Counted from the stretch's first letter, positions 8,933 through 27,769 are shown. The stretch: 32,000 bases of DNA from Promethearchaeota archaeon (GCA_016933055.1 JAFGBS010000009.1:360001-392000), one strand, 5' to 3'. The notes: generated by a model from the letters alone, not told the origin. Program-made: numbers and translations.

Positions 8933-8952
8933 TTGGTTTGTGAATATACCAT

Positions 8953-9044: not shown

Positions 9045-9050
9045 AGGTGA
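9045..9050 (+). promoter_or_regulatory. Shine-Dalgarno-like site AGGTGA upstream of rpl40e
   Basis: aata-AGGTGA-ttatc-ATT-cca-atc-gca. Confidence 0.6.
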
Positions 9051-9055
9051 TTATC

Positions 9056-9217: not shown

Positions 9218-9218
9218 T

Positions 9219-9623: not shown

Positions 9624-9660
9624 ATTATGGATTTCTTAAACACAAATAAGAAGCTTATGC

Positions 9661-10464
9661 TTACGATCGATGAGCAACTAACGAAAATTTTTCACCTAAT
9701 GACCATAAGGTTTTGAAATAGGTCATAGCATACCGAACTAGGTTAACTTCAGTAATCCAAAACACCATATTTTCCTCGCGGACGTTCAATTTAAAGAAAG
9801 AGGAGAGAAACACAAGAAGATCACTATCATCGACAATAATGCCATCAAACATAACCCGTGAATTAGTTTGAATCTTGGAAATTGTCAGCATTTTTCTCCA
9901 AATTTTTTTAGTATCTGTACTTGGATTAAAATCTCTAGGAATACTAACTTGGATTTCCACTTTTCGTGTATTAGCTTCCAATAAATGGTCAAAAAACTCT
10001 TCAATAAAACCTTCATCTGGTTTATTGAAGAAAATTTGTATTTTATTCTTAGCTCCATTCAATAGATTGGCGATTTTTAAGCTTATATCTCCTTTGAGCA
10101 TAAATATCGGAGTCGTATCTATTTCCTTTTCATTTCCGTATCGAGGTTCTAATTTATCAATAAGAGCAGATTCTATCCGTTTATATTTCTCCTCGAGTTG
10201 TTTCTTAGCAATCTTTGCCACAGACTTCGGTCGTTCGGCTTGATACATCATTGGGCGACCTTGGTGAACTTTGACCCATCCTTGACTCTCTAAATTCAAT
10301 AAAATGTCATAAATTCGGCTATAGGGTATATTAGTTTTATCTGAAATTTCCTTTGCGCTAGAAATTCCATTGATAGTTAATGCTACAAATGCTTTTGTTT
10401 CATAATCAGTCAATCCGAACTCTTTTAACGCCGCATATACCTCATGGTCGATCTTTGATAACGT
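9661..10464 (-). CDS. TrmB-family transcriptional regulator
   Basis: LKEFGLTDYETKAF...AKEISDKTNIPYSRIYDILLNLESQGWV...RPMMYQA is the TrmB wHTH, followed by a C-terminal effector-binding-type domain. The frame is open 5' of the track's TTG (10413) up to an in-frame TGA at 10471-10473, so the true start is uncertain (ACG 10464 or TTA 10461). Confidence 0.88.
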   Translation of the reverse strand, partial: TLSKIDHEVYAALKEFGLTDYETKAFVALTINGISSAKEISDKTNIPYSRIYDILLNLESQGWVKVHQGRPMMYQAERPKSVAKIAKKQLEEKYKRIESALIDKLEPRYGNEKEIDTTPIFMLKGDISLKIANLLNGAKNKIQIFFNKPDEGFIEEFFDHLLEANTRKVEIQVSIPRDFNPSTDTKKIWRKMLTISKIQTNSRVMFDGIIVDDSDLLVFLSSFFKLNVREENMVFWITEVNLVRYAMTYFKTLWSLGEKFSLVAHRS

Positions 10465-10658
10465 TCTAGTTCACCCCTTAACCTTGTATTAGCCAACGTA
10501 TTATACCCATTAAATGTTTATTATTTTACACATTTCTCTAGAGGCTTAGTTAAGGAAAAAAGAATTACTGGATAAGCCACATGACTTCTTAAAAATACGC
10601 ACAACTTTTTAATAATGGTAAAATATCAATAAATCATCAATTTTAAAGGAAAAAAAAG

Positions 10659-10862
10659 ATGCCAAGTTGTGATGATTTTAGCGTTGGGGAAATTTGGACG
10701 TGTCTGGATTGTGGTTTAGAGATTAAGATTTTAAAAACCTGTACGGCTTGTGAAGAAGGTTCTGATTCTTGTGGTTGTACCGACAAGGATAGTGATCATG
10801 AGCATGCACCACATGGGTGCGAATTTACATGCTGCAATAAGCCGTTAGTATTGAAAAAATAA
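10659..10862 (+). CDS. Small Cys/His-rich metal-binding protein, desulforedoxin-like termini
   Basis: 67 aa with 10 Cys and 3 His: GEIWTCLDCGLEIKI ... CCNKPL. ATG follows AAGGA, with a TATA-like TTTTTAATAA upstream. Confidence 0.7.
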   Translation: MPSCDDFSVGEIWTCLDCGLEIKILKTCTACEEGSDSCGCTDKDSDHEHAPHGCEFTCCNKPLVLKK

Positions 10863-10893
10863 GTTTTTTACCTATTTTTTCATTTCTTTTTTT

Positions 10894-11835
10894 ATGCAGA
10901 AACTGAAAGGCATATTTGGACCAATTCCTATTTTCCTCACGAAAGATGGTTCTATAGATTTTGATACTAATCTAAAAATCAGTAAGCAGCTCTTATTAAC
11001 CGATATTGATGGACTCTTTATTTTAGGAACGACTGGGGAATTCCCGTATTTTTCTATGGAAGAAAAAAAACGGTATATAGATATGTTTTGTGAAAATTTC
11101 TCTCAATTCAAACCAATAGTATGCTGTGTGTCCCATTGGTCCCAAAAGAAGGCGATCGAACTTACCGAATACGCATTAAAAAATGGATTCAAATATATTT
11201 CAGCCCTCCTTCCGCAATATTTTCCCGTCTCGGAAATAAATATTCTTGAATATTATCGATCGATAAGAAAGAAAATTGATGATTACGATTCTTCAGTAGC
11301 TTTTATTTTCTACCATATTCCTGTAATCCAGTCTGCAGTTAGTGTAAAACCGGGAGTCATCATACAACTTGCTAATGAAGGTGTGATTCAAGGAGTAAAA
11401 AATTCAACTCCTGATCTAGACCATTCAAGAAAAATTATTGAAAATACTGGAAAGGAATTCTCATTTCTATGCGGAACAGAAACCCTCCTCTTGGAGGGAT
11501 TTAGAGATGGGGCTATTAACACTCAATTCGATGGAGGAATATTTTCTGGAGCAAATGCATTGCCCTTAACCTACAAAAAGTTGTTTGAAGCAACCAAAAT
11601 TGCAGATAGGGATAATTTTGCTCGATTGTGGCCATTAGTAGATGAATTCATTGCAATATTTGATCATGGGTTAACCTATTTACCTCAAATTACTAAATAT
11701 GCAATGAAAAAAGCAGGATACGTCGTTTCAAATGAAATTAACAAACCTCTTGGAGTAATTGACAAGAAGATAAAAAAACAAATTAGTGAAGTCATCCATA
11801 AGATTCAAATCTATTGGGGAACGAACCAGATTTAA
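10894..11835 (+). CDS. DapA/NanA-family class I aldolase (dihydrodipicolinate synthase family)
   Basis: LGTTGEF, FYHIP and Schiff-base lysine GVKNS. Substrate cannot be assigned. Confidence 0.85.
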   Translation: MQKLKGIFGPIPIFLTKDGSIDFDTNLKISKQLLLTDIDGLFILGTTGEFPYFSMEEKKRYIDMFCENFSQFKPIVCCVSHWSQKKAIELTEYALKNGFKYISALLPQYFPVSEINILEYYRSIRKKIDDYDSSVAFIFYHIPVIQSAVSVKPGVIIQLANEGVIQGVKNSTPDLDHSRKIIENTGKEFSFLCGTETLLLEGFRDGAINTQFDGGIFSGANALPLTYKKLFEATKIADRDNFARLWPLVDEFIAIFDHGLTYLPQITKYAMKKAGYVVSNEINKPLGVIDKKIKKQISEVIHKIQIYWGTNQI

Positions 11836-12575
11836 GCAAGTGGTTTTGGCGTTAAGTCTTCATCCCCTAATTCGATCATCAATGAAAGCACTGTAAACTG
11901 CATCGTCAGCATTTCTTTACATTCAATCTCTAATTCCATAAATTCTTCAGTAGTGGTATTGATTCCATATTTTACGGCTAAATCACGTAGTATAGCAGAG
12001 AGTTGGGTGAGTAAGAAATCTTGTTTGGATAAATCTAATTTCTGATTCTTTATCCATCTGTCAATCTCATTTTTAAGATAAATCTCAGTGCTGGTCATGG
12101 GGCTATAAACAACTTCAATTTCAGCAAGCTTTCCACGATCCAATAAATATTCCTTTGATTTTAATACGGGTTCAACCAATAAACAGAGATTAAGAATTTT
12201 CGGTCCAGGTGCTAGGGTATCAAAACTAATCCCAAAAATGTTCAAAATTTCATCTTTTCGCTCTATTTTAGAATAATCTAAATATAACTCAAGAAGATTC
12301 ACAAAAGTGGTTTTTACTAATACATCAGGTATATTATCTACAAGATCGCAGATTTCATAAGAAATTGTAATTATTTCAAAGATTCGCTTCTGAAATTCGG
12401 CATCCCGTAAATAAGTACTGAAGTAATTCAAGTATTTGCGGGTTTCCTCTATAATGAATGGGATTTTAAAGGACGGATATACATTAAGAAGGGATAAAAA
12501 ATCCTCAGAATCAACGGGATTCCCCAATAAATACACAATTTCTTCAATTGTGTTTTTTGATAAGTTCTCCGTCAT
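11832..12575 (-). CDS. Hypothetical, largely alpha-helical protein
   Basis: About 247-250 aa open frame that fills the gap between convergent neighbours. ATG 12575 follows AAGGT (track start TTG 12584). No motif recognised. Confidence 0.7.
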   Translation of the reverse strand: MTENLSKNTIEEIVYLLGNPVDSEDFLSLLNVYPSFKIPFIIEETRKYLNYFSTYLRDAEFQKRIFEIITISYEICDLVDNIPDVLVKTTFVNLLELYLDYSKIERKDEILNIFGISFDTLAPGPKILNLCLLVEPVLKSKEYLLDRGKLAEIEVVYSPMTSTEIYLKNEIDRWIKNQKLDLSKQDFLLTQLSAILRDLAVKYGINTTTEEFMELEIECKEMLTMQFTVLSLMIELGDEDLTPKPLA

Positions 12576-12621
12576 TACCTTCAAATCCTATTTGTGTATT
12601 ATATTATATTTATTTTTCGAA

Positions 12622-13749
12622 CTAGTGATTAAGTTTTAATCCTAGCAATATTCTCAAAGCTAACCCAAATATTTTGCGTTTTGGCATTTTTTTTGATAGA
12701 ATCCTTAAATATAAACCCGTTGTAGTTTTTGGTGGGATATCCAATTCTGACTTGAATGTTAACCGTATGGCACTTTTTGGACATGTTGAAACACACAATC
12801 CGCATCCAATACATCGATCCCAATCTATAACCGCTTTATGATTAATAATCATTATAGCATCCATATTGCAGCGATTAATACAAACTTCACACCCAATACA
12901 TAGATCAGTATCCACTTCTGAATAGTAATTAGATTCAAAATATTGGGCGGGATTTCTTAAATGCTTAGCTTCGCTTAAAACTCCACAACAACAACCACAA
13001 CATAGGCAAAGGAATGCGGGTTTTTGACTGTTCGAAGGTTGCAGTACTAAACCCACTTTTTCAGCCTTTTCCAAAATTTCTAGTGCTTCATCTTTCGTCA
13101 AATGTCTTTTGTTACCATGCCAAGTTGCAGGTTTGCCGTCATATGCAAATGTTAAACACCATTCACGTAAATCAGTTTTCTTACAAGGACGTTCAAGTAG
13201 ATCACATGATTGCCTACAGATACAATTTCCCACCAAAATATCTGTTGTTTGATTAATAATATCTCTGATGTTATCATATGTAGTTACTGGGGAGGCATGA
13301 GTGAATGATTTTTCCACAGGTATCGTCCGTAATTGAAGTTCGGTATCTTTGCGGAAGAATTCATCTCGAAAACCCGCTTGCATATATTCTAACATTAAAT
13401 TAGAAAGTTCCAGATCCACATTATCAACTTTATATTCATATAATCCCACAACAAGCATGTCTGCTCGATATTTCGTATTTCTCTTATTTTCTGTTCTTGT
13501 AATCGTTCTTTTTTCTACCATCCCATCTAGTATGTATTTTAGGTGAGTTTTTGAGTAACCGAGGTGTTTTACTCTTCTATAAATTTGCTTTAGGGATTGA
13601 GGTATGATAGTAAGGTGAAGTAAGATTTGCGCCTCTCGTTCAGTAAAGAAATATTGTAAAAGCCGTATTTCTACACCAGTTTCAGTCGCGGGAAATCCTA
13701 TTGGTAAATTATCCAAATGTTTTTGTAGTTTCTGGTAAACTGAAGCCAT
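12622..13749 (-). CDS. 4Fe-4S dicluster-domain iron-sulfur protein
   Basis: Two ferredoxin motifs (CIGCEVCINRC and CIGCGLCVSTCP), plus CICRQSC and CLCCGCCCG clusters and an N-terminal helical extension. Confidence 0.85.
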   Translation of the reverse strand: MASVYQKLQKHLDNLPIGFPATETGVEIRLLQYFFTEREAQILLHLTIIPQSLKQIYRRVKHLGYSKTHLKYILDGMVEKRTITRTENKRNTKYRADMLVVGLYEYKVDNVDLELSNLMLEYMQAGFRDEFFRKDTELQLRTIPVEKSFTHASPVTTYDNIRDIINQTTDILVGNCICRQSCDLLERPCKKTDLREWCLTFAYDGKPATWHGNKRHLTKDEALEILEKAEKVGLVLQPSNSQKPAFLCLCCGCCCGVLSEAKHLRNPAQYFESNYYSEVDTDLCIGCEVCINRCNMDAIMIINHKAVIDWDRCIGCGLCVSTCPKSAIRLTFKSELDIPPKTTTGLYLRILSKKMPKRKIFGLALRILLGLKLNH

Positions 13750-14009
13750 CGAATCTAATTACGTTACAAACTAATTAAATGAATGCTTAAGAACTCTTTA
13801 AATAATTAAGATCCTATTGGCAAAAAACGAGGATCAGCAAAATATTGTAGAGTTAATTGTAATTTGGAAAATGTTCCACCCAACTTATGACATGAAGATA
13901 ATTAGATTTGTAGCATGAAACAAATAGTGTGCAACAAAATTATTTAGCATTCCAATAAATCTAGGATAATAGAGTCTTTATTTTAATTTATTAGAAAGGA
14001 ATTGAAAAA

Positions 14010-14399
14010 ATGCCAACATTTCTGGAATTTTGGATAATTGATCGTAATGGTATTACTCTTTACCATCAAAAACGAAATAAAAATGTCGAAAGCATAAATA
14101 AGAATCTTTTCAGTGGATTTGTTTCGGCATTTCATGATATTATTAATGTGAGTTCTCAAGAGAATGTCGAATCCATTAAGTTCAAGAATTCCAAATTAAT
14201 TATGATTCCTACTAATGTCTATGAGCGATTACTCTTTATCGCTCGTACGGATCAAAAAGAAAAAGACAAGAATGTTCGTAAGGAGCTAAATAAACTATCA
14301 AAAATCTTTCTTAATGAATTCAACGAGGAATTGAAGAAATGGGTGGGTGATATGGATACATTTGAAACTTTTGGAAAATATCTTATACCTTATTGGTAA
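14010..14399 (+). CDS. Longin-like domain protein (Asgard-type)
   Basis: FWIIDRNGITLY (beta-beta), LFSGFVSAF helix, IKFKNSKLI, LLFIART and LSKIFLNEF...W.GD...F..F, the pattern of Asgard longin domains. Confidence 0.75.
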   Translation: MPTFLEFWIIDRNGITLYHQKRNKNVESINKNLFSGFVSAFHDIINVSSQENVESIKFKNSKLIMIPTNVYERLLFIARTDQKEKDKNVRKELNKLSKIFLNEFNEELKKWVGDMDTFETFGKYLIPYW

Positions 14400-14477
14400 T
14401 TGAGCAAAATGTTTTCTACTTATTTTTATTAGAGGAATGTTTAGAAAGATTATAATTCTTTAATATTTGGTATATAA

Positions 14478-15278
14478 ATGCCAACCATTAAGATTGGATG
14501 TGCTGGGTGGGTTTATGAAGATTGGATTGGACCTTTTTATCCAGATTACGTATCCAAAGAGAGATTTTTAACATATTATGCAAAACACTTTGACATTGTA
14601 GAGATCAACTCTTCACATTACAATATTCCCAAAGAGAAAACCATTAAAAAATGGAGAGAATCCGTACCACATGATTTTCGTTTCTGTATCAAATTCTGGA
14701 ATCAAATCACTCACATCAGCGATCATCGGATAGGTATTCAAAATCTCCATATTTTCTTGAATGCATTTCAACCCCTAATCGAAAAAATTGCATATTATCT
14801 GATTCAATTTCCGCCAAGTTTCCGTTATGATAGGGATAATTTCATTTACATTCATGAAATTCTTGACAAAATTGACCCAGATATCAAAGTTTCTGTTGAA
14901 TTAAGGCATAATACTTGGTTTGATTTGCCTAATATGAAATCGTTATTAAATGGGAAAAACCAAATTCTTGGAACAATTTATCTCAATGATATAATCCCGT
15001 ATTATCCCGAATGGCAAAAGAATTACTACATCCGGGTTATTGGAGATCGAAATCTAAAAAAATTCGATAGAGTGCAGAGAACAATTCCAGAAATATGGAA
15101 TGACTTAACTTCGTTTATCAAACAAAACCGAGAAAACACCAAAATAGATGATATATTCGTTATTTTCAATAATCACTATTCGGGTTTTTCTCCAGCCGAT
15201 TCGAATATGCTTAAGAGTTTCTTGGATTTACCAATAAAAGATTTTAAGAAAAAGGGAACTATTACCGATTTTTTTTAA
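14478..15278 (+). CDS. DUF72 (UPF0759/YecE) family protein
   Basis: IGCAGWVYEDW.G.FYP, LTYYAKHFDIVEINSSHY, LIQFPPSF, VELRHNTW and FNNHYSG. Confidence 0.9.
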   Translation: MPTIKIGCAGWVYEDWIGPFYPDYVSKERFLTYYAKHFDIVEINSSHYNIPKEKTIKKWRESVPHDFRFCIKFWNQITHISDHRIGIQNLHIFLNAFQPLIEKIAYYLIQFPPSFRYDRDNFIYIHEILDKIDPDIKVSVELRHNTWFDLPNMKSLLNGKNQILGTIYLNDIIPYYPEWQKNYYIRVIGDRNLKKFDRVQRTIPEIWNDLTSFIKQNRENTKIDDIFVIFNNHYSGFSPADSNMLKSFLDLPIKDFKKKGTITDFF

Positions 15279-16531
15279 AGATATAGACTAGAATTATGTT
15301 TTATTAAATCATATAGACTCGAATCATTAATAGGATCTGAAATATCACAGATTTTACTATTTGTGAAATACTCAAAGTCGAATTCCGTATAATCCTTACT
15401 CTTTTTATTAGAAATTGGCATCAACCGACAAGTTAAAGGTTTGTTTAAACGTGTCGATAACATGGCGACATCCATCATTAACAAACTTAATGCTCCCTCT
15501 GAAACATTCCCGGGAAGTGGTATGGTGTCTAAACCTAAGCCACACACTGTTGAATTCAATAAAAGTTGCGTTAAGTCGAATTTCCCTTCAGAATGTCGTT
15601 TTGCTATTATATAATCTTCTAATAATGGTTGCATGAACCCACTAAAGCCTATCTTAGGTCTTTTCACTTTTTCAATCGCAGATGTAATTAACCCGATAAC
15701 AAATATAGTTCCCAAATCACCGAAATGAGATAATTTTATATTTTCGAGTGCAGTTCCAATACTCTTTTCTACAATAGGATAAGGGGAGGGACTAAAATCC
15801 ATACCACCGTACTTTATCCCATGTTTAATACAAAACGGCTTTAAAATGCTGAAAGTCTCATCATATATTGCAGTAAATCGTTGAACTATGCTATCTTGTA
15901 ACCATTTTAAGTCATACTGATGCTTGGAAAATTCCTGGGTGATTTTAGCCATCTCATCTGCTGCTTCTAAAGCAATCGTAATTTTTGGATTCACTCCTTG
16001 ATGATATGCTGACGGGAAAAATGGTGTGTTTGGTGGAACATTGAATGTCGCTGCGAATTGTAAATTCTTAAAAGCGTTTATGTCTGATAGTTTTTTAATT
16101 ACCCAGGCGCATTTTTTTATTGCTTCGAGAGAAATTCCATTTCGAATGGAAGAAACTTGTATGCTAGAGAACATAACAGAATGATCCTTGAAATACTGAG
16201 GAAAATTTTCAATTATTCTTAATTGGGTGGGAGTTAATGGGTGGGTTTGATCGCATAATCCAGGAATAAACGAATAATAATCCACTAAGTTTTCTTTTAC
16301 TAAAGTATCAATATATTCGAGTTTAACTGGTATTTGCGAAAAAAAATCCCCATCAAATTCACTTTTATGCGTAAAAGGAAGCGAACAAAAACGCACCGTT
16401 TGAACATTAATTGATTTTTCTTCCAATTGTTTGCGTAAAATTGAAACAAACTCGAGATTGGTTCTTAAATGCTCTAAAGATCCTGATTTTCCATCTAAGG
16501 GAAATCCCAACGTAATTGCTCGTATTTTCAT
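15275..16531 (-). CDS. DUF711 (UPF0210) family protein
   Basis: MKIRAIT start, PFFPSAYH, DFSPSP, GFSGFMQPLLED and STVCGLGLDTIPLPG. Confidence 0.88.
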   Translation of the reverse strand: MKIRAITLGFPLDGKSGSLEHLRTNLEFVSILRKQLEEKSINVQTVRFCSLPFTHKSEFDGDFFSQIPVKLEYIDTLVKENLVDYYSFIPGLCDQTHPLTPTQLRIIENFPQYFKDHSVMFSSIQVSSIRNGISLEAIKKCAWVIKKLSDINAFKNLQFAATFNVPPNTPFFPSAYHQGVNPKITIALEAADEMAKITQEFSKHQYDLKWLQDSIVQRFTAIYDETFSILKPFCIKHGIKYGGMDFSPSPYPIVEKSIGTALENIKLSHFGDLGTIFVIGLITSAIEKVKRPKIGFSGFMQPLLEDYIIAKRHSEGKFDLTQLLLNSTVCGLGLDTIPLPGNVSEGALSLLMMDVAMLSTRLNKPLTCRLMPISNKKSKDYTEFDFEYFTNSKICDISDPINDSSLYDLIKHNSSLYL

Positions 16532-16535
16532 TATC

Positions 16536-17231
16536 TCATATCCTATAATTTTGGATTATCTGATTTCGAATGTATTTTTCTACTTTTGTGGCTGGTTGAT
16601 AGATCCCAAAATGCCCTTCACATAAGATATCAGCCTTCTTCGATAATAGAAGTTTCATAGAACTTATCCAATCATGGATATTGGAGTTAAATTCTTGCAT
16701 AAACGGCCCATGAATATCCTGTCCAAAAAGGACTTTTTTGCCCTCATCTTGTATGAGTACGGCAATGGAACCTGGTGTATGACCGGGTGTATGAATAAAG
16801 TTGAACATTGTACCACCAATCACCATATTTTCTTCGATTTTTTTTACTGCTACATCAACTTTTACTGGTTTATACGTAATACCATACCAACTTGCTGCCG
16901 TTATTTTTTCGGTACCAGGACGACCTTCAATGACTTCCCGTTCCCAATCATGAGCGTAAATTCGTAGTTCAGGAAAATTTTTCTTAAAATCCGCTGCAGA
17001 TCCCGTGTGGTCGACATGTGCATGGGTAAGTACTAAACCGACCAACTGGTTAGGATCCAATCCTGTTTCCTCAATATTCCTTATCAATACTTCATATGAA
17101 TCTATCCCACAATCTATCAGAACTATTGAATCATCTTTACATTTGATGAGAAAAACCCCAGCATCTCCAGAATTACTAATATTTTCTCCACCAATCTGGT
17201 ATACATTAGTTGTTACTTGAGTATATGGCAT
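16536..17231 (-). CDS. MBL-fold metallo-hydrolase
   Basis: LIDCG, THAHVDHTG (HxHxDH), TPGHTPGS, LFGQD and LCEGH. Confidence 0.92.
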   Translation of the reverse strand: MPYTQVTTNVYQIGGENISNSGDAGVFLIKCKDDSIVLIDCGIDSYEVLIRNIEETGLDPNQLVGLVLTHAHVDHTGSAADFKKNFPELRIYAHDWEREVIEGRPGTEKITAASWYGITYKPVKVDVAVKKIEENMVIGGTMFNFIHTPGHTPGSIAVLIQDEGKKVLFGQDIHGPFMQEFNSNIHDWISSMKLLLSKKADILCEGHFGIYQPATKVEKYIRNQIIQNYRI

Positions 17232-17296
17232 TCTTCACTCTTTGAATATGTATTATCGAAATATTATATTGATTTGGTTAATTGAAAGCTATAGAG

Positions 17297-18130
17297 ATGT
17301 TTGATTATCATATTCACACTAAGTATTGTAATCACGCTGTTGGAACGATGGAAGAATATGTACAAGCTGCCATTGATAAAAACCTAAGCGAGATGGGTTT
17401 TGCTTGTCATATGCCATTTGAATTAATGCCCTCGGAAGTACCTCGAGAGGAATATGCCATGTCCTTACATACTTTGAATTCCACATATTTTCCAGAAATT
17501 GAGCGTTTGCAGCAAAAATATAAGCATCAAATCACAATCAAAACAGGTTTAGAGATAGATTATTGTCAATGGATTCAGCAACCTATCGACGAGTTCATTG
17601 ATAAATATTCACACCGGTTGGATTACATATTGGGTAGTGTTCATATTCTCAAGTCGAATGATATCGTGTGGGGTATAGACGATCATCGGTTTTCCCATAT
17701 TTTTAATGAAATCGGAGTGGATGTGGTATATCAACAATATATCAATGCATTGGAAAATCTGGTTAAATCGGGTAAATATACTATTTTAGCTCATCTGGAT
17801 TTACCAAAGAAGTATGGATTTCACCCTACTAATAGAACATGGTATCTAAATCGCATCGAACTTTTGTTGGATTTAATAAATGATAACCATATGGGAATTG
17901 AATGTTCTACAGGGGGTTTGCGAAAACATATTGGTGAGATATATCCCGAAGAACAAATCATAAAAATTGCGATACAAAAAGGAATCCCATTAATCACCTC
18001 TTCAGATGCTCACAATCCCAATGAAGTTGCGTATAATTTCCCAGAATTGTATTCCTACTTAAAAAGATTGGGACTTACTCATCTAACTTCCTATAATGCA
18101 AAGAAAAAAAGCTTAATAGAAATCAGCTGA
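17297..18130 (+). CDS. PHP-domain histidinol-phosphatase (HisJ family)
   Basis: DYHIHTKYCNHA, GLEID, DYILGSVH, LAHLDLPKK and SSDAH. ATG 17297 preferred over TTG 17282. Confidence 0.88.
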   Translation: MFDYHIHTKYCNHAVGTMEEYVQAAIDKNLSEMGFACHMPFELMPSEVPREEYAMSLHTLNSTYFPEIERLQQKYKHQITIKTGLEIDYCQWIQQPIDEFIDKYSHRLDYILGSVHILKSNDIVWGIDDHRFSHIFNEIGVDVVYQQYINALENLVKSGKYTILAHLDLPKKYGFHPTNRTWYLNRIELLLDLINDNHMGIECSTGGLRKHIGEIYPEEQIIKIAIQKGIPLITSSDAHNPNEVAYNFPELYSYLKRLGLTHLTSYNAKKKSLIEIS

Positions 18131-18136
18131 TATTTG

Positions 18137-18865
18137 ATGAAAAATCCAAAAACTGAACAAGCAGTACGATTTCTGCAGAACATGCAAAGGTACCTAAAAA
18201 AAAGCGATCAAAAGACTTTACTTGGAGAAATGCAAGAGAAAGCAAAAAAAAATAATGAGGGAGTAGATCCATTTAGAGTCCTTATTGGCACAGTACTATC
18301 TATTAGAAATAGGGATGAGAGCACCGTTATAGCCACTTCTAATTTATTTGATAAAAAGAGATTAAATACACCCCAGAAAATAGAAGATACACCCATTTCG
18401 GAGATCGAAGACTTAATTCGGAAATCGGGTATGTATAAGACAAAAGCACAACGCATTAAAGAAATCAGCCGAATTTTGATTGACAATTTTGATGGACAAG
18501 TACCTGACACCATGGAGCAATTACTTTTGCTTCCTGGAGTGGGTCCTAAGGTAGCCAATTGTGTTCTGGTCTACGCATTTAAAAAACCTGCAATTCCAGT
18601 AGATACACATGTTCATCGGATATCTAATCGAACTGGGTTAGTAACTACAAAAAACCCGGAAGACACCGAAGAAATTTTGAAGAAGATTTATCCCAAGGAT
18701 TATTGGTTAGAAGTCAATGATATATTTGTCAAATTTGGAAAATCTGTTTGTAAACCGATTGGTCCCAAGTGTAATGAGTGTCCGATCACACAAGAATGTC
18801 CTAAAATAATCATTAAAAAATCATCGAAAAAGAGTAAGGGATCCTCCCCTATTTTGAAAAAATAG
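18137..18865 (+). CDS. nth: Endonuclease III (HhH-GPD, 4Fe-4S)
   Basis: PFRVLIGTVLS, HhH LPGVGPKVANC, PVDTHVHRISNR and C-x6-C-x2-C-x5-C (CKPIGPKCNECPITQEC). Confidence 0.93.
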   Translation: MKNPKTEQAVRFLQNMQRYLKKSDQKTLLGEMQEKAKKNNEGVDPFRVLIGTVLSIRNRDESTVIATSNLFDKKRLNTPQKIEDTPISEIEDLIRKSGMYKTKAQRIKEISRILIDNFDGQVPDTMEQLLLLPGVGPKVANCVLVYAFKKPAIPVDTHVHRISNRTGLVTTKNPEDTEEILKKIYPKDYWLEVNDIFVKFGKSVCKPIGPKCNECPITQECPKIIIKKSSKKSKGSSPILKK

Positions 18866-18979
18866 TGTAAATTCATTTAGGAGATAGTCCACTAGCTTAA
18901 ACATCAGTTAAAACGAAAACTGAAAAAAATACTTTAGTGAACAGCTAACGTGCTATTCGACTACTCGGAGTTCTAGGTC

Positions 18980-21013
18980 ATGTCTGAAAAACACAATAGT
19001 GAACTCATTAACATTGATCCTCTAGAAAGTTCCGATGAAGAAATTTCTGAAGAAGAGGAGATAGTCCTACCTAGCGCTATCGATATTCAAGTGGACTCAT
19101 TAGATACAAGTCGTAAACAGTTTTTCAATCAAATTCTTGGGATGATCCAATCTTTAAGTGAACAGAAAGACATCATTTCAAAGATCTTGGATGAGGGTTG
19201 TTCTATACTGAATGCAAGTTCTGCAGCTCTGGTGATTTGGGAGGACAAATTAGGTTTCTTTAATTCCATATCGGGTTTTCCAGAAGAGATGAATATCCGA
19301 GGTCACTTAATCAATACTAATGAGGGATTAAGCGGGAGGATCTATTCCGAACAAAAAACAATTTGGATTCGCAATTATAGTAAGTCAATTTATTGTTATA
19401 AGTTATTTAAAAAACTGAATTTTAACTACGCAATAGGAACACCAATTGTTATCCGTGGGGAATTAATCGGAAATGTCAATTTTTATTATAAATCCATGCC
19501 TGAAGCGGATAATGAATTATTAAAAAGATTTATCGAGGATTTAAGTCAACAGTTAAGTATTGTTATCATAAACTCAAGAATTTACCAAGAACTCCAAGAA
19601 AATGCAAAAAAACTAGAAAATGTAATAAAATACCGGGATGTAATTTTAGATCACTCTCCAAATATCATCATTGATTTAGATAATAATGGGAAAATTCAAT
19701 ATTGGAACAAAACTGCTACCGATATCCTGGGATATTCCCCCCATGAAATGGCGGACTGTAATTTACCGTTAGCAGATCACGCAAATTCAGAACAATTTTT
19801 AAAATATTTCATTGATGCTCGTAAAGGCATTGAATATGAGAAAGCACCCATTGATTTTAAGAGAAGTAATAATGATGTTGTTACTTTAAATTTAAAAATA
19901 GTCCCTTTAATTACATCCACCCAACGAAAAAAGGGAGAAGAAGCTAAATCTATATTAATTTTCGCTATGGATGTTTCTCGGAAGCATATTTTGGAGCAAA
20001 AAATTAAACAAACTGAATTAGAGCTTCATGAACAAAAGCAAGAATTAGAGAAAACCCAAGAAAAACTAAAGGGTATTAGTAGAGATCTCAAAAATAAGGA
20101 AAAGCTAGCACGTATTGGAAGAATATACGGAAATCTTGCGAACCAAATTAATAATCCCTTGATGATTATTAGTAATTGGGTGCAAGTATTAATGGATTCT
20201 CATGAAGACGCCCCCTCCCCAAAAAGTCAGGAGACATACGCTTACCTTATGGAAATACCCTCCGAAATTGAACGAATAGCTGAAATCGTTCGAAACCTCC
20301 GAGTGTATTCTGAAATAGCTACACAAAAAATTGAAGATCGGGATTCAAAGGTATCGCACGGAGTAGGGGAAGATACAATTCCCCGATCAAATGATGTTAC
20401 CGTAATCAATCCGTTGTATGATGCAGTTAAGGACATTAAAAGATGCATTAAAGGAGAACGCATCAAAATCGATGTGGTCTCCAATTTTAAAAAGAATCCT
20501 CCTGTGATAAAGGGAAGATATCGTCATCTCAAAACTTGCTTTTACCATATTCTTGAAAATGCAGTAATCTCTCTTCGATTTAAAGATCTATATACAAAAC
20601 TCGGACTTATAGAGAAAAAATGGGATCGGAAAATCAAGGTTACTATAGGGGAAAAAATTATCAATGGCATCCCATATGTTCGGATAGAAATACATGATAG
20701 TGGTATTGGTATTGATCGGGATGAAATTCGAAATATTAAGAAAGCTTTTCACTCCAATTGGCCCAGTATCGATGATATACAAGAACTCGCTGAATCTGTC
20801 GGGAAAAAATTAAACGCTAAAGATTTAGAAATTATTCGAGATTTTTGTGAAGAGGGATTTAAACAAAAACTCAAAGATAAAAAATATTGTGTAGGAATGG
20901 GACTTACAATTGCCTCCCTTATCGTAAAATCCCATGAGGATAGTAGTATACACGCTAAACTAACTCCACAAGATGGAGTTTCCTTTATAATGGATTTCAA
21001 GCAAGTATCATGA
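18980..21013 (+). CDS. GAF-PAS sensor histidine kinase-like protein with degenerate H-box
   Basis: GAF (GLSGRI...AIGTPIVIRGELIG), PAS (SPNIIIDLDNNGKIQYWNKTATDILGY), coiled coil, HisKA-like ANQINNPL, N box ILENA, G1 box DSGIGID and G2-like GMGL. Confidence 0.9.
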   Translation: MSEKHNSELINIDPLESSDEEISEEEEIVLPSAIDIQVDSLDTSRKQFFNQILGMIQSLSEQKDIISKILDEGCSILNASSAALVIWEDKLGFFNSISGFPEEMNIRGHLINTNEGLSGRIYSEQKTIWIRNYSKSIYCYKLFKKLNFNYAIGTPIVIRGELIGNVNFYYKSMPEADNELLKRFIEDLSQQLSIVIINSRIYQELQENAKKLENVIKYRDVILDHSPNIIIDLDNNGKIQYWNKTATDILGYSPHEMADCNLPLADHANSEQFLKYFIDARKGIEYEKAPIDFKRSNNDVVTLNLKIVPLITSTQRKKGEEAKSILIFAMDVSRKHILEQKIKQTELELHEQKQELEKTQEKLKGISRDLKNKEKLARIGRIYGNLANQINNPLMIISNWVQVLMDSHEDAPSPKSQETYAYLMEIPSEIERIAEIVRNLRVYSEIATQKIEDRDSKVSHGVGEDTIPRSNDVTVINPLYDAVKDIKRCIKGERIKIDVVSNFKKNPPVIKGRYRHLKTCFYHILENAVISLRFKDLYTKLGLIEKKWDRKIKVTIGEKIINGIPYVRIEIHDSGIGIDRDEIRNIKKAFHSNWPSIDDIQELAESVGKKLNAKDLEIIRDFCEEGFKQKLKDKKYCVGMGLTIASLIVKSHEDSSIHAKLTPQDGVSFIMDFKQVS

Positions 21014-21078
21014 GGATTATTAACAATTTAAGATAAGATTAAAAAATAAAACCACGAAAAACTCACAACAAATAACAT

Positions 21079-21084
21079 AGGTGT
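21079..21084 (+). promoter_or_regulatory. Shine-Dalgarno-like site AGGTGT upstream of the response regulator
   Basis: acat-AGGTGT-tataa-ATT-acc-gat. Confidence 0.55.
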
Positions 21085-21089
21085 TATAA

Positions 21090-21758
21090 ATTACCGATAA
21101 AAAAGCAAGAATATTGGTTATTGATGATGAAAAAGCCATCAGAGTAACATTGAAAAGAATTCTTGAACTGGCAGATTTTACGGTCGAAACTGCGAGGGAT
21201 TTCCAAAGTGTTAAATCCATATTAAACGCTGAGAATCCTAATTTTGACCTACTTTTGGTAGACTTAGTTCTACCTAAAACTAATGGAATCGATATTGTAA
21301 AACACTTTAGCGAAAAATATGATTTCGACATACCTGTTATATTTTTAACAGGTGAACCGAACTTAGATTCCGCAATTAATGCACTGCGTTTAGGAGCTTA
21401 TGATTATATTGAGAAACCAATTAAAAAAGCACAATTACTAGAAGTCATCGAATATGCGTTACAACGCAAAAAAAGTGAGGATAATATCCAAGATAAGCGT
21501 ATGGCACAAAAAATGGAACAGAAGCTAAAGGGATTAGAAAAAAATTTACAATCAAGTATCATAACCAACTTTACAATGAAAGTCGATGCGCTACGAGAAA
21601 AAATTGATTATTTGAGACAGGGCAAAGCGGGAAACCTCCCCGTTGAGATTTCTAATGAAATTGCGAATTTAGATAAATTAGTTAATGACCTAGAACTCGA
21701 GATTAAAAAAAGTAATCACCTTGGAAAATTTATGCGAGAACTAACAAAAAAAAAATAG
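21090..21758 (+). CDS. Response regulator (receiver domain plus coiled-coil C-terminus)
   Basis: RILVIDDE, LLLVDLVLPKTNG (phospho-Asp), FLTG and YIEKP. Start placed at ATT 21090 (MTDKKARILVIDDE); the track start TTG 21114 cuts into beta-1. Confidence 0.92.
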   Translation: MTDKKARILVIDDEKAIRVTLKRILELADFTVETARDFQSVKSILNAENPNFDLLLVDLVLPKTNGIDIVKHFSEKYDFDIPVIFLTGEPNLDSAINALRLGAYDYIEKPIKKAQLLEVIEYALQRKKSEDNIQDKRMAQKMEQKLKGLEKNLQSSIITNFTMKVDALREKIDYLRQGKAGNLPVEISNEIANLDKLVNDLELEIKKSNHLGKFMRELTKKK

Positions 21759-21943
21759 TCTAATCTACATTTGTTGAACCTAATCGCTTTTTTTTCATAC
21801 GACCGTTGTATAAAGGGGTAACTATACTGTACGCAGTGCGTTTGGTCAGCAATTTTGATGATAGCATGTAAAAATCGAAATTTGGATGGATTCTTGGGGA
21901 GAAGGGAGAAGACCGCACAGTACAAAGGAGAATAAAGGGGAAA

Positions 21944-21967
21944 TTTTACCGATTAGCTTCGGTAAAA
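21944..21967. other. Perfect 9-bp inverted repeat with 6-nt spacer
   Basis: TTTTACCGA-ttagct-TCGGTAAAA, about 90 nt upstream of the roadblock ATG. Function unknown. Confidence 0.5.
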
Positions 21968-22056
21968 AAAGATTACTATACAATTTTTTGACATAGAAGA
22001 AATATTCAAATAGTGAATCAACCGATATTTTATTAGATCAATCGAGTGGGCACATT

Positions 22057-22555: not shown

Positions 22556-25500
22556 TTAATGAAGAATAATAGAATTTCCCGTATCATCACGACCAATCTT
22601 AATCCGATTTGAAAATTGCTCAGCCACATCCTCCAAATGCGTAATTAAGATGATATTCTTAAAGCGAGATTTCATAGAGAGGATCTTGTCTACGAATCGT
22701 TGTCGGGACATTTCATCATCCAAGGTTCCCAAATCCCCCTCATCAATAAATAAGGTATCTGATTTTCGAAATATTGCTCCAGCGGTATCGGGAATTTCCG
22801 ATATCCGTTCCATGATTGCAAATCGAATCGCTGCATTGATTTGAGTCTTTTCACCACCTGAATAGGTTCCAGCTTCCCGACTCAATTCTCCATCAAAAAC
22901 ATGGATATTGAATCCTACGCGATGATTCTCTTCAATGGGGACAAATTCAATTTGATTCAATCGGCCTCTTGTCAAATCACTGAGGATTTCTGATGCACGA
23001 ATAGAGATTGCAGGCAGTATTTTCTCCAGAGCGAATTTTGGAATTCCATCCAAATGGAAGATTTCCTTATGTAAAATGGTATAGACTTCAATTTCTCTTT
23101 TAAATTTGTTCAGTTCTTTGATCATGTTCCGAATATCGCTTTTTTTCTCTTCTTTTTCCATGATATCTTGTTCTAAATGTTGAATATCCGACTTGATGCG
23201 TTCAATGGCGATATCCATTTCCTTTAGCTCTTCTTTTGATAATTCGTAATAGGAACACAGCTCTTGGTACGATTTATATTTAGGTTCAAGTTCGTGAAAC
23301 TTGTTTTCTGTCTTTTTTTTCTCTTCTTCAATATTCTTGATGTTATGCACGGTTTCATTTATTAGCAGAGAATAATCTTTTAACTGAGATAATCGACTAA
23401 GCAATTTTTCTTCTTCTTGTTGTTGCTTTTCGATGGATTTTAGAGTACGTGTGACTTCTGCTAAATGCGATTGGAAGTCCTCTTCCAACTTCTGCTTACG
23501 CATGGAATCTTGTATCGTAGCAAGATCTGTTTGCAGTGGTTTAAGTATTCCATCAAGTTTGTCCTCTAAGACTTGTATTTCGACTTCCATGGTGGCGACC
23601 TGTTCGATAAGCTCATTGGCAATAAATATATCTTTGGTGATTAGTTTTTGCTTCGGTTTCACATTATTCAGCTCGTTAACTGTAGACGATTTGGTATTTT
23701 CAAATTGTACTAAACGAGGTTGATCTGAATATTCCTTTGCCATGGGGATTTCGATGTTTTGGAGGCGTGATAGGCGTTCTGTTAAAGCTCCAATTGTCTG
23801 TAATACATCAAATGCTTGTTCTTTACTCATATCCACTGCAAGCTTTTCAATCCTGGCTTTGAAGTTCTTAATTTTGGCTGCAATTTCTTTTATTTGCTCT
23901 TGATTCTGGTGCTTTACCATTGAAATTTTATCAACAATCGCTCTTTTCTCCGTTTCACAAAGTTGTTTTTGAGACAATTTCTCCTGTAATTCGTTTCGAA
24001 CTTTCTGATGCATGTCTTTCTCTTTGGATAAATCTTTGAACTTCTCCAACTGGTTTTGAATAACTTCATAATTTTTCTGGTTTTTCTGGTAATCAGTTAG
24101 ATTTTGCTTGGTTTTCATTAATTGCGACGCAAATTCTTGTACTTTGTTTTTAGTGATTTCATACTGAGTCAGTATGGAAGAATCCTTTTCGATTTCTTTT
24201 TCTAATTCGGTCATCTTCTGTTGGTGCTTATTGCGTTCTTTTTTAGATTCCTGCAGTACTGCTTTTTTTGTTTTAAGCTTGGTTACCAGTTCGGGGATTT
24301 TCTCGATATCTTCTTGTTGTGCCCCGATTTTCCCCTCAAGATTATCATGGACTGAATTCAGATCTTTTATGATCTTTCTCATATCCATGGTCGTGAATAT
24401 CTTGAGTTTGAATAATTTGGCCAGTCGTTCTTGTCTTTCAGCGGAAGAGAGCGATGAGAATATTTGCAGCTCTTGCTGGCGAATAAAAAATGAGGAGATA
24501 AAACTCTCATAATCATACCCGATAATCTCTTCCAGTCTTTTCTCTTGCTCGGGGATTTTTAACCCTTGATAAGGTTCCTGTCCATTGATAAAAATCCGTA
24601 ATTTTGGAGAATTTTGACTTCTTCGTATCCTCAAGAGGTTCTTCCCAATCTGAAACTCTACATCCACATATCCATTTTCATATAAGATCTCATCATTCGT
24701 CAATCCAGCTTCCTTTCTCATACTTCTTTTAAAAAGAGCAAATGTAATAGCATCTAATAAGGAAGATTTTCCCGTACCCGTTGGACCCGTTATAACGTAC
24801 AAATCCTCCTCAAATTCGATTCTGTTTGGGCCTTTCCTATATTTGTTGAAATTTTGGAGGGAAATGGATTTTATGGAGAGAGTTCCTTTTTCAGTAATAT
24901 CACTGGTTTTTAATTGAGATTCTATCAATTCAGTGCCTTTTTTGAACACATCATCGTAATATTCATTTTGTCTGTATTTCTGTTTCATAAAATCCTCAAA
25001 TAAACTCAAGGGGGAGAGATTAATACTCCTTAGATGCTGAAGTTCTTCTTCAGCTTTTACTACATAAATAATATCCGTATAGAACGAGCCGGTAAAATGC
25101 TGTTCGATTGCCCGTTTATCCAAATGAATTTGTTTTCCTTTAATGCAAGTTATGGTGACATGACAGAGTGCATGTTTTATCGTTTCTTTTTTGGGTAATC
25201 TCTCAAAAATATATTGAGTTAAATTTAGTGTATTAGGAGGGACTTCAATCTCAGTTTTAAGGATTGGGCGGCATTTCAACTCGTGGTATTTCAATGTATC
25301 CGTTTCAGGTTCATAGACACAATAATATTTTTTTGAATCCTTTTCTCCCATATCGATTCGCTCGGTAGAACCTAATACGACAATACGGTCATCGTTCCAC
25401 ATGGTTTGTTTAAGATGCACATGTCCGAATATAACTAAATCAAAAAAGTGTTTTTGAACCATCTGCTGATTAAACTCAAATTCTCCATAGATATGTGCAG

Positions 25501-26119
25501 GATTCATCGTTTCCCGGATTTTGCTTCCTTTCAGGTAATAGTGCCCGATTAGAATCCGTTTATCACACTCTTTAAGATCCTCTTCACATATTTGTGTAAT
25601 ATACCTTTGAACAATTGTTTGTGCGATGGATTGGGTATCCATACCTTCAGGAATGTCAAACCCGACCTTTTTCGCTAACGAAACTAATACATCATAATGC
25701 ATAAACGGTAAAAGTGCCAATCCTATGGAACAATTGTTAGATTGAATGATTTTAGAAGCAAATTGCATGTGTACCTCGACATTAGAATAGCTGGAAAGCT
25801 CCTCTAAATCTACTCCACGTTGCGGATGACGGGCAGCATCATGATTTCCTCCGATAATAATCACAGGGATCTTCGCTTTATATAAAGGGTCAAAAATACG
25901 ATTTCTCACAATTTTGCGAATTGTGGGGGAGATTATCTTTCGATCGTATACATCTCCTAGAAAAATGACATAATCTGCGTTATTTTGTATCGCATCCTTG
26001 ACAATTATCTCACAATTATCAATTACATCCAGATTTCGTTCCGAGATATTCAATTCGTAATTTGATAAATAGGAATATTTCTTCCCGAAATGGGTATCTC
26101 CTATAAAATATAATTTCAT
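22556..26119 (-). CDS. Mre11(SbcD)-Rad50(SbcC) fusion protein
   Basis: N-terminal phosphoesterase motifs GDTHFG, LGDVYD, GGNHD, IGH and FGHVH. From about residue 418: SISLQNF, Walker A GPTGTGKSS, Q-loop IRQQE, long coiled coil, signature YSGGE, Walker B/D-loop FIDEGDLGTLD and H-loop ITH. One uninterrupted frame; ATG 26119 (track TTG 26131). Confidence 0.93.
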   Translation of the reverse strand: MKLYFIGDTHFGKKYSYLSNYELNISERNLDVIDNCEIIVKDAIQNNADYVIFLGDVYDRKIISPTIRKIVRNRIFDPLYKAKIPVIIIGGNHDAARHPQRGVDLEELSSYSNVEVHMQFASKIIQSNNCSIGLALLPFMHYDVLVSLAKKVGFDIPEGMDTQSIAQTIVQRYITQICEEDLKECDKRILIGHYYLKGSKIRETMNPAHIYGEFEFNQQMVQKHFFDLVIFGHVHLKQTMWNDDRIVVLGSTERIDMGEKDSKKYYCVYEPETDTLKYHELKCRPILKTEIEVPPNTLNLTQYIFERLPKKETIKHALCHVTITCIKGKQIHLDKRAIEQHFTGSFYTDIIYVVKAEEELQHLRSINLSPLSLFEDFMKQKYRQNEYYDDVFKKGTELIESQLKTSDITEKGTLSIKSISLQNFNKYRKGPNRIEFEEDLYVITGPTGTGKSSLLDAITFALFKRSMRKEAGLTNDEILYENGYVDVEFQIGKNLLRIRRSQNSPKLRIFINGQEPYQGLKIPEQEKRLEEIIGYDYESFISSFFIRQQELQIFSSLSSAERQERLAKLFKLKIFTTMDMRKIIKDLNSVHDNLEGKIGAQQEDIEKIPELVTKLKTKKAVLQESKKERNKHQQKMTELEKEIEKDSSILTQYEITKNKVQEFASQLMKTKQNLTDYQKNQKNYEVIQNQLEKFKDLSKEKDMHQKVRNELQEKLSQKQLCETEKRAIVDKISMVKHQNQEQIKEIAAKIKNFKARIEKLAVDMSKEQAFDVLQTIGALTERLSRLQNIEIPMAKEYSDQPRLVQFENTKSSTVNELNNVKPKQKLITKDIFIANELIEQVATMEVEIQVLEDKLDGILKPLQTDLATIQDSMRKQKLEEDFQSHLAEVTRTLKSIEKQQQEEEKLLSRLSQLKDYSLLINETVHNIKNIEEEKKKTENKFHELEPKYKSYQELCSYYELSKEELKEMDIAIERIKSDIQHLEQDIMEKEEKKSDIRNMIKELNKFKREIEVYTILHKEIFHLDGIPKFALEKILPAISIRASEILSDLTRGRLNQIEFVPIEENHRVGFNIHVFDGELSREAGTYSGGEKTQINAAIRFAIMERISEIPDTAGAIFRKSDTLFIDEGDLGTLDDEMSRQRFVDKILSMKSRFKNIILITHLEDVAEQFSNRIKIGRDDTGNSIILH

Positions 26120-26134
26120 TTTACCTTTCAATCC

Positions 26135-27769
26135 TTATTTGAATAACGCTTTCGCATCTCCTTTCATAATATCATTTTTTACTTCCGCTTGGGTCTTAAT
26201 CATCTTAAGTGCTTTCTTAAGATCATCTTCTTTATGATAATCCATTATCCGAATGATAGTAGGAACCGTAATTGCATCTCCATAGATCAAGCATTCTCGT
26301 TTCAACAAACCCGAAATGATTTTACGATATTCGGTCGGATTCCGAAGTGTTCCTACGGTTTTATCGATATCTCTACTGTCAATCAAATGCATAATAAATC
26401 TCGTGGCAACTTGGGACATTACTTCTTCATCAATTTGAGAAGGACGTTGGTCCACAAAAGCAAGCGTTAATTGGAATTTTCGCATTTCTCTAGCGATTCG
26501 GTCAAATATGGTGTATCGGATAACACCGGGATGTAGAAATTTGTGAGCTTCTTCCAATACGACTACTAAAGGAGGAAGATCTTCATTTTCCTCTCGTAGC
26601 GAATACATCTGATATAATCGGCGAGTAATAGCGTTTGCTATGAAATAATAGAGAAATTTATCTACACCGTAAGTACCGAAATCAATGACAACGGATTTTC
26701 CCTTCTGGATTTGTTCAAACATATTCTGAATGCTATCAGGCGTATTGGGAATTTTTGGAACTAGAAAAGAATATTTATGGAAGCGGCTAATGCGATTCCG
26801 TAATGCGATTAAAGATGATCGAAATATATTTGGTTCTTCTTCTCCATTGTTGTTGATATAATTCAATAAATCTTGACTTTGTTTTGGATCACTTCGCATT
26901 TTTGTTTCAAGAATATGAAGTGCGTTGATAGATGGTTCTCCCAAAGTCTGGCTGCTTGCGATAATATCGCCGCTGGTAATATTTTCCCGATAAAATTTAA
27001 ACGGCTCGGCATCATCTATGACTTTTTCTTTCTGATTTACATCACCGAGTCGATATATTTGAATCTCATCGTGGAAGTAATGTTTAAGCCCTTTAGAACG
27101 ATCTTCTCCGCGGGATACTAACCCATACTCTCCTTGCATATCAAAAATTAGTAATCTCGATACTTTTTGCTTTAAAATGAACAAACAGAGCAATTTATTC
27201 AGTATTGATTTTCCTATCCCCGTTCTACCGAACACTCCAAATGGTTTTTTCACTAAAGTTCCAAAATCAATCGGAATTTTGTAATTAAAACCACGAAGCG
27301 TGCCAATAGAATCCGAAGTGGGGGTTTCTCCGAAAATAATTTTAATTTCCTCTTCGGTTATTGATCGACATTTCGCAAATACAGGAGGAATAGTATCAAA
27401 TTCTCGCAATTCTTCATTAGTGGTATCGATGGGAATAATTTTCAAACAGTCTAAGTTGGCAAGACCATAAAATTCTTTCCCACGCACACCCTCTACTTGA
27501 CTCGCTGGAATCAAGTTAGTTAAGGAAGTGTTAGCAAATTTCATAACAACATCATTAGGTGGATAAAATAAACGATTGACCATGCTATAATACAAAAACT
27601 TGTCTGTATCTACAATTATTGGTTGCCCGAGTTTTAATTCATCTGGTCTTTTTTGGATCTTTAATATTATTCCAGTTTCGGTATCTGCAAGACAGACTTC
27701 TCCTATTTTCTCCTTTTCAATTGGAGTGGGTATTTCTTCAAATTTCATATCTTCTTCCTTTTTTTTCAC
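26135..27769 (-). CDS. herA: HerA-family helicase/translocase ATPase
   Basis: N-terminal HAS-barrel-like region, Walker A FGRTGIGKS, FDMQGEY, Walker B VLEEAHKF and IAREMRKF...DQRPSQID. The start may be ATG 27748. Confidence 0.92.
   Translation of the reverse strand: MKKKEEDMKFEEIPTPIEKEKIGEVCLADTETGIILKIQKRPDELKLGQPIIVDTDKFLYYSMVNRLFYPPNDVVMKFANTSLTNLIPASQVEGVRGKEFYGLANLDCLKIIPIDTTNEELREFDTIPPVFAKCRSITEEEIKIIFGETPTSDSIGTLRGFNYKIPIDFGTLVKKPFGVFGRTGIGKSILNKLLCLFILKQKVSRLLIFDMQGEYGLVSRGEDRSKGLKHYFHDEIQIYRLGDVNQKEKVIDDAEPFKFYRENITSGDIIASSQTLGEPSINALHILETKMRSDPKQSQDLLNYINNNGEEEPNIFRSSLIALRNRISRFHKYSFLVPKIPNTPDSIQNMFEQIQKGKSVVIDFGTYGVDKFLYYFIANAITRRLYQMYSLREENEDLPPLVVVLEEAHKFLHPGVIRYTIFDRIAREMRKFQLTLAFVDQRPSQIDEEVMSQVATRFIMHLIDSRDIDKTVGTLRNPTEYRKIISGLLKRECLIYGDAITVPTIIRIMDYHKEDDLKKALKMIKTQAEVKNDIMKGDAKALFK

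Follow-up and report, generated by a model that had tools for sequence, protein, structure and literature searches.

Translation of a response-regulator gene in a Loki-type Asgard archaeon very probably begins at an ATT codon (AUU in the message), at position 21090 of the DNA analysed, on an mRNA led by a Shine-Dalgarno (SD) sequence. The regulator would be one case of a habit spread through its order, in which a minority of SD-led genes, including those for uS12, eS30 and the initiation factor aIF1, appear to use AUU, AUA or AUC in place of AUG. The stretch under study, called the window here, comprises 32,000 nucleotides, bases 360001-392000 of contig 17 in an assembly of 3.76 Mb (36 contigs, 35% G+C, 91% complete); positions given without a contig are counted from its first letter. 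The features around the start site and the neighbouring genes are as follows.

18980-21013, plus strand: sensor histidine kinase GAF-PAS-HisKA-HATPase (Pfam), ending 76 nt upstream of the regulator
21038-21051, plus strand: A/T-rich box ATTAAAAAATAAAA, likely the TATA element of the regulator promoter; six syntenic orthologues share a conserved block, TTTAAAAGATAAAAT, at the aligned position
21079-21083, plus strand: SD core AGGTG, complementary to the 16S 3' end GGATCACCTCCT; GGTG kept in 7/7 sequences
21084-21089, plus strand: spacer TTATAA, 6 nt, between the SD and ATT
21090-21092, plus strand: proposed initiation codon ATT, the first codon past TAA; ATT in 5/7 and ATA in 2/7 orthologous sequences
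21090-21758, plus strand: response-regulator gene, 222 codons and stop; receiver domain at residues 8-120, two long C-terminal helices at residues 113-221
21108-21122, plus strand: codons of strand beta-1, R7 I8 L9 V10 I11 (E7-11 by DSSP on the AF2 model)
21114-21116, plus strand: TTG, first canonical in-frame start, chosen by gene callers and yielding the 214-aa product P0001
22057-22416, plus strand: Roadblock/LC7 gene with an ATG start (Pfam Robl_LC7), downstream of the regulator and in synteny with it

The segment 21079-21116 and the codons behind it read AG GTG TTA TAA ATT ACC GAT AAA AAA GCA AGA ATA TTG GTT ATT GAT GAT, exactly as written in a preliminary description of this DNA, which had proposed initiation at ATT on the ground that a TAA directly before it blocks the GTG embedded in the SD. 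That TAA (21087-21089) is in frame both with the GTG (21081) and with the regulator gene, and the frame is open from ATT 21090 through the stop at 21756-21758. Between the TAA and TTG 21114, which sits 30 nt from the SD, the frame holds no ATG, GTG or TTG. The 3' end of the 16S rRNA is GGATCACCTCCT and its full SD complement is AGGAGGTGATCC, within which GGTG lies, so that the motif is a true anti-SD complement. At the genome's ATG starts GGTG ends 5-8 nt upstream of the codon, and the regulator's spacer to ATT, with its 6 nt, falls inside this range. The centre of the A/T-rich box ATTAAAAAATAAAA lies about 46 nt before ATT 21090, and we infer a promoter role for it; the transcript would then have a 5' leader of some 20 nt with the SD inside it. 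A search with Rfam over 20900-21300 returned no RNA family, the one sub-threshold match being to a snoRNA (16.9 bits against a cut-off of 41), and the fold of the start region is ordinary (z -0.8); with neither a family nor an unusual fold, a riboswitch or structured leader at the start site is unsupported.

The 222-residue product matches the Pfam family Response_reg (PF00072) with 88.3 bits against a cut-off of 30.2, over residues 8-120 and profile positions 1-110 of 111, and its AF2 model (mean pLDDT 74) places two long C-terminal helices after the receiver. Among 18 homologues D58, T87 and K109 are invariant and D12 and D13 nearly so; we take D12 and D13 to be the acidic pocket, D58 the phospho-acceptor, and T87 and K109 the conserved Thr and Lys of CheY-like domains. 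The GAF-PAS-HisKA-HATPase kinase encoded upstream is likely the partner of the regulator, as predicted from the sequence, and the gene order kinase, regulator, Roadblock is kept on orthologous contigs. A tblastn search of the genome for N-terminal receiver paralogues found only two. Elsewhere in the window, on the minus strand, a single frame of 1191 codons (22556-26131) encodes both an Mre11-type phosphoesterase (residues 5-239) and, from residue 420 on, a Rad50-type ATPase, archaeal mre11 and rad50 usually being separate genes, and a HerA-like helicase gene (26135-27769) adjoins this fused frame.

Close homologues of the regulator, which carry the name 'Promethearchaeota archaeon' and so help to place the genome among the Loki-type Asgard archaea, were collected from the protein database, and the DNA of six distinct syntenic sequences, 78-83% identical, was aligned with the window (L175 is an identical copy of L174). 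In all seven sequences GGTG is invariant and is followed by a spacer of exactly 6 nt and then by an Ile codon, which is ATT in the window, L174, L176, L177 and L178 and ATA in L172 and L173. A Ser or Thr codon comes next in 7/7, then a short variable tail and then (A/T/S)-R-I-L-V-I-D-D-E; the differences in length between the Ile codon and ILVIDD are multiples of 3. The spacer reads TTATAA in the window and TTACAA, ATACAA, ATATAC or ATATAA among the orthologues, with an in-frame TAA in 3/7 (the window, L172 and L173), and the spacer has the behaviour of untranslated sequence. In the other four sequences the GTG of the SD is in frame without a stop, and there the gene callers choose it; the two residues that a GTG start adds are hypervariable (LQ, IQ, IY). 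The TTG of the window is replaced by TTA, a synonymous Leu codon, in four of the six orthologues (L173, L174, L177 and L178), which means that this start is not conserved. TAA and TTA occur together in L173, where no canonical codon is found before or within the first 25 residues of the receiver; the gene caller took there a TTG ten codons past IDDE, a start that would delete beta-1 together with the acidic pocket, and judged from the alignment the ATA behind the SD is the sole workable start in this sequence. Distant orthologues (37-49% identity) begin M-[SA]-K-A-[KR]-I-L-[VI]-I-D-D behind GGTGA, and an N-terminal tail before beta-1 is thus the norm of the family. In the same-genus genome G001 (76% complete) the search with this query found no regulator orthologue.

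A single mechanism would explain all seven sequences, namely that GGTG is the ribosome-binding site and the Ile codon 6 nt on is the initiation codon, although for the use of the Ile codon in all seven, including the four with an open GTG where GTG could serve, the argument rests on parsimony. The preliminary description had also anticipated that N-termini would be mis-annotated in this lineage, and the public proteins bear this out, in that those which begin at a TTG lack 8 or more than 25 residues, and those which begin at the GTG of the SD have 3 residues too many.

The alternative that survives best, and which we still regard as unlikely, is a start at TTG 21114, perhaps on a leaderless transcript from an A/T-rich TTATAAATT box, which would yield a 214-aa protein MVIDDE... 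and leave ATT and SD irrelevant. TTG 21114 is after all the first canonical codon, and the TTATAAATT spacer about 26 nt before it could pass for a TATA box. The preliminary description had objected that such a start would truncate beta-1. This stands insofar as a start at residue 9 would lose two of the five strand residues (R7 and I8), but the damage is milder than the objection implied, the Pfam domain being shortened by one profile position only. Further points speak against the TTG: its homologous codon is TTA in the four orthologues named above, there is no SD within 30 nt of it, in every homologue read beta-1 is preceded by 4 or more tail residues, and the putative TATA TTATAAATT is not conserved (TTACAAATT and ATATACATT stand in its place), whereas the box about 46 nt upstream of ATT is.

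One could also suppose that translation originally began at GTG 21081 and that the TAA arose as a nonsense mutation, the gene being dead, or rescued by read-through or by re-initiation after a two-codon mini-ORF. Such a history would fit the four orthologues that have an in-frame GTG immediately preceded by a stop (TAG GTG), the start that gene callers choose there. We hold it to be very improbable, however, as the 222-codon frame is intact with all catalytic residues kept, and as the TAA occurs in three sequences from two sub-lineages, paired with ATT in one and with ATA in the other. The two residues after the GTG are hypervariable, unlike the Ser or Thr that follows the Ile codon, no separate SD serves the GTG, and the essential gene for uS12 has the same GTG-TAA-(AAT)-ATT layout.

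More improbable still is a start at the near-cognate ATA 21111, giving MLVIDDE..., even though this codon is invariant among the orthologues and ATA serves as a start elsewhere in the genome, in an epimerase and a NifX-like gene. It lies 27 nt from the SD and is without an SD of its own, its invariance is accounted for by the conserved Ile of beta-1, and the codons between ATT and ATA 21111 hold frame across indels and keep Ala-Arg or Thr-Arg.

That the ATT is an assembly or sequencing error for a true ATG is hardly credible, given that Logan contigs of the source sample (run X1, depth about 18-19), an independent assembly, cover 3000-7468 and 7441-21790 with zero differing letters, and that ATT or ATA also occupies this position in orthologues taken from several other metagenomes and MAGs. 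The preliminary description had named ATG in the reads as an outcome that would speak against initiation at ATT; the independent contigs show ATT, and the ATT sites of the regulator and of the two other genes of the window with this layout, described below, are thus reproduced and are not assembly errors. Two metatranscriptome runs of the same study contained next to none of the window's sequence. Short contigs of an unrelated hot-springs metagenome from 2017 (run X2) are identical to parts of window 3000-22000, and the same strain, or one very near it, seems to be present in that second sample.

The genome offers a broader view. Two genes of the window besides the regulator carry an ATT behind the same SD:

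1841-3471, minus strand: thermosome gene with AGGTG at 3471-3467, spacer ATAAAA of 6 nt and ATT at 3460-3458, the same layout
9045-9217, plus strand: eL40 gene (Pfam Ribosomal_L40e) with AGGTG at 9045-9049, spacer ATTATC of 6 nt and ATT at 9056

The window contains AGGTGW-N5-ATT 3 times, where 0.85 would be expected and where 3 of 100 shuffles reach the same count of 3; the three sites are the 5' ends of the thermosome gene, eL40 and the response regulator, the very trio that had been pointed out from the sequence. For eL40 the ATT is probably the start, in a case that is not decisive, the GTG of its SD (9047) being in frame without a stop; the thermosome gene likewise probably starts at its ATT and is not decisive either, its GTG 3469 being in frame right after a TAG. 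Most of the 29 thermosome orthologues listed have an SD-like GGTGA, GTGA or GAGGT a few nucleotides before their ATG, and their N-termini fall within 1-2 residues of the ATT start.

The preliminary description had called for a genome-wide scan for enrichment, and this was carried out in two directions. In the first, in-frame codons within 10 codons of an upstream stop, in openings of at least 80 codons, were scored for GGTG 5-8 nt upstream. Of 2603 ATT cases 43 have it, the rate for non-start codons being 0.73% (odds ratio (OR) 2.3, p 5e-6). Once sites preceded by a canonical codon, or followed by one within four codons, are removed, 22 of 1250 have it against 0.58% (OR 3.1, p 1.5e-5). In the converse test we took the codon behind GGTG[AT], with a spacer of 5-8 nt and a stop within 10 codons upstream, and recorded the fraction that opens a frame of at least 80 codons. 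This fraction is 23% for ATG, 6.2% for ATT (34/549; OR 3.6, p 3e-9), 5.9% for GTG, 4.3% for TTG and 1.8% for non-start codons, the background. Of the codons with the same composition, AAT and TAT lie at background, which TTA exceeds only marginally (3.5%, OR 2.0, p 0.04). Permuting the SD word to GTGG and TGGG brings the OR to 1.04; for GGGT, which overlaps the SD, it is 1.65. The enrichment that had been proposed is therefore present and specific to the SD motif, and it is modest, with a net surplus of about 24 genes for ATT and about 10 for ATA. After an SD of this kind ATT thus ranks second in frequency among start codons, behind ATG alone. When any 5-mer of AGGAGGTGATCC is accepted as SD, noise rises and the OR for ATT drops to 1.4 (p 0.05), and raw counts of GGTG-Nx-codon without filters for ORF starts are dominated by coding-phase periodicity.

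Individual genes give the same picture. In the uS12 gene the layout is AGGTG, TAA, AAT, ATT and then P-G-S-K-S-P-R-G, with ATT at the position of the orthologues' Met-1. The same-genus genome and two other genera share this ATT, three further genomes carry ATC or ATA there, and the remainder have ATG; in the same-genus genome a canonical codon is absent for 15 codons upstream of the ATT, and over the first nine codons the three closest genomes differ mostly by synonymous changes. In eS30, GGTGA is followed after 6 nt by ATT at Met-1, and the entire Pfam domain precedes the first ATG; ATT stands at Met-1 in 10 of the 30 loci read, the same-genus genome having ATG. Domains begin before any canonical start also in an epimerase (ATA), the NifX-like protein (ATA), a methyltransferase (ATC), a PAPS-reductase-like protein (CTG) and a RagA-like GTPase. 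A RagA/Gtr1-like GTPase (L067; contig 11, 27566-28528) and a Rab-like GTPase (L072; contig 6, 242881-243876) both have a G domain well before the first canonical start, by 70-140 codons.

CTG is found at the correct spacing behind GGGAGG or GGTGA in two genes, L066 (contig 26, 1180-1941) and L068 (contig 17, 640337-641965). The former, the PAPS-reductase-like gene, is a firm candidate for a CTG start, its first canonical start lying inside the domain; the latter, an aldehyde dehydrogenase gene, is a less firm case, a canonical start preceding its Pfam match. A TrmB-family regulator gene within the window (9661-10475, minus strand) has its Pfam TrmB match at residues 13-79 when counted from ACG 10464, with a TTG at residue 18 as the first canonical codon, and GGGGTGA 7 nt upstream of the ACG, the TGA of which is in frame; we regard it as a candidate for a start at ACG or at another near-cognate codon.

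The gene for aIF1/SUI1, of which the genome has one copy only (L141; contig 6, 28138-28455), holds no ATG, GTG or TTG before the CxxC zinc knuckle, and most likely starts at ATA in this genome. A canonical start before the CxxC knuckle is missing in most relatives as well. Across the relatives one family has a conserved AGGTTGTGA-N9-ATT, several genera have TTG or GTG, and ATG is found in one genus only. This pattern suggests that weak starts may limit the synthesis of the factor for start-codon fidelity by the factor itself.

The preliminary description had further envisaged routine use of ATT on highly expressed genes. This holds for uS12 and eS30, and probably for eL40 and the thermosome gene; it does not hold for the main ribosomal-protein cluster (contig 28), in which every gene read starts with ATG, or with GTG in the case of uS8. 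The use of ATT by all ribosomal proteins is thereby ruled out, and ATT is a minority start codon in this genome.

The one initiator tRNA found in the 91%-complete assembly has the anticodon CAT, A1 and three G-C pairs; as this single initiator is ordinary, an altered initiator tRNA as the cause of the ATT starts is unsupported. The genome-wide tRNA scan also returned a gene for tRNA-SeC (anticodon TCA), which implies that some in-frame TGA codons of the genome may encode selenocysteine. For the spread of the codon across the phylum, a degenerate DNA pattern of the eS30 N-terminus was searched in 400 genomes. The eS30 start is ATH (ATT, ATA or ATC) in 20 of the 126 genomes of this order that bear the motif, distributed over seven genera, and in 0 of 116 outside it; it is ATG in the other 106 genomes within the order and in the 116 outside. 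Although related genomes do not count as independent samples, the variety of codons and the scatter over genera suggest that the start switched repeatedly inside one order.

Taken together with the layout of the site, these observations are consistent with a simple course of initiation on the regulator mRNA. The 3' end of the 16S rRNA would pair with AGGUG and so set the codon 6 nt downstream in the P site, where the ordinary initiator tRNA (anticodon CAU) would accept AUU despite the mismatch at the third position and give an N-terminal Met. The GTG inside the SD would not be a start codon, and the next six bases would be an untranslated spacer, which is why a TAA could be tolerated there. 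We infer that the strong SD compensates for the weak codon, and weak starts may serve to set or regulate expression. More speculatively, start-codon stringency in the order may be constitutively relaxed for SD-led mRNAs, with AUU, AUA and AUC as regular initiators, and may be set by aIF1, itself translated from a weak start, in a feedback like that of eIF1 and IF3; the genes concerned would then make up a translational regulon particular to this lineage, with ribosomal-protein and signalling genes among its members. We put this wider proposal forward only as a possibility.

Near-cognate initiation assisted by an SD is already known, and what the comparison of genomes would add is its occurrence throughout a lineage, an archaeal order. 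The bacterial genes infC (IF3) and E. coli pcnB have conserved AUU starts behind an SD. These are native AUU codons at normal SD spacing read by the ordinary initiator tRNA, and we propose the same here; in infC and pcnB the weak codon ties output to the factor that polices start codons. They are, however, isolated regulatory exceptions, bacterial and under the control of IF3, whereas the present case would involve archaeal aIF1, aIF1A and aIF2 and dozens of genes, ribosomal proteins included, and, unlike infC and pcnB, shows ATT, ATA and ATC interchanging with ATG among close relatives. Bacterial IF3 and eukaryotic eIF1 limit their own synthesis through weak starts or poor start context. A role of eIF1 in start-codon fidelity is on record (PMC6237735). 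In the order studied here the homologous aIF1 appears to be encoded with a weak start in the same manner, with ATT, ATA, TTG or GTG in nearly all relatives read, and stringency appears to be tunable here as in eukaryotes. The likeness has its limits: eukaryotes scan from the cap and favour CUG among the near-cognates, whereas here SD pairing would pick the codon, and the third-position variants AUU, AUA and AUC dominate.

Mitochondrial codes (NCBI tables 2 and 5) use AUU, AUA and AUC as routine starts, together with a changed code and a modified wobble base of tRNA-Met. The AUH initiators are the point of likeness with these; the difference is that the code here is the standard one, AUH is Ile internally, and the initiator tRNA gene looks ordinary. 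Among archaea, ribosome profiling of Haloferax volcanii has placed about 30% of putative alternative initiation sites at near-cognate codons (PMC7261190), from which it follows that archaeal ribosomes can start on near-cognate codons. Those sites are minor or alternative ones, which the study left aside because they might be false positives (PMC7261190), whereas in the order considered here the near-cognate codon would be the sole available start of conserved and partly essential genes. Reviews of archaeal and Asgard translation mention only the rarity of SD sequences in Lokiarchaea (PMC7531240; a 2026 review, PMC12993045), and a full-text search of the literature found no description of AUH starts in Asgard archaea.

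Such starts matter in the first place for annotation. Gene callers limited to ATG, GTG and TTG would truncate, extend or miss the proteins concerned, the regulator family being stored with three different wrong N-termini, and wrong starts would affect structure prediction, domain calls, tables of presence and absence of 'eukaryotic signature' proteins and estimates of the completeness of Asgard genomes. They bear also on the biology of the lineage. No known prokaryotes are more closely related to eukaryotes than the Asgard archaea, whose initiation factors are homologous to eIF1, eIF1A and eIF2. The use of AUU, AUA or AUC for AUG at uS12, eS30, aIF1 and regulators would thus be a natural experiment in start-codon fidelity with eukaryote-type machinery and, as cultured relatives exist, near-cognate initiation in this lineage would be directly testable.
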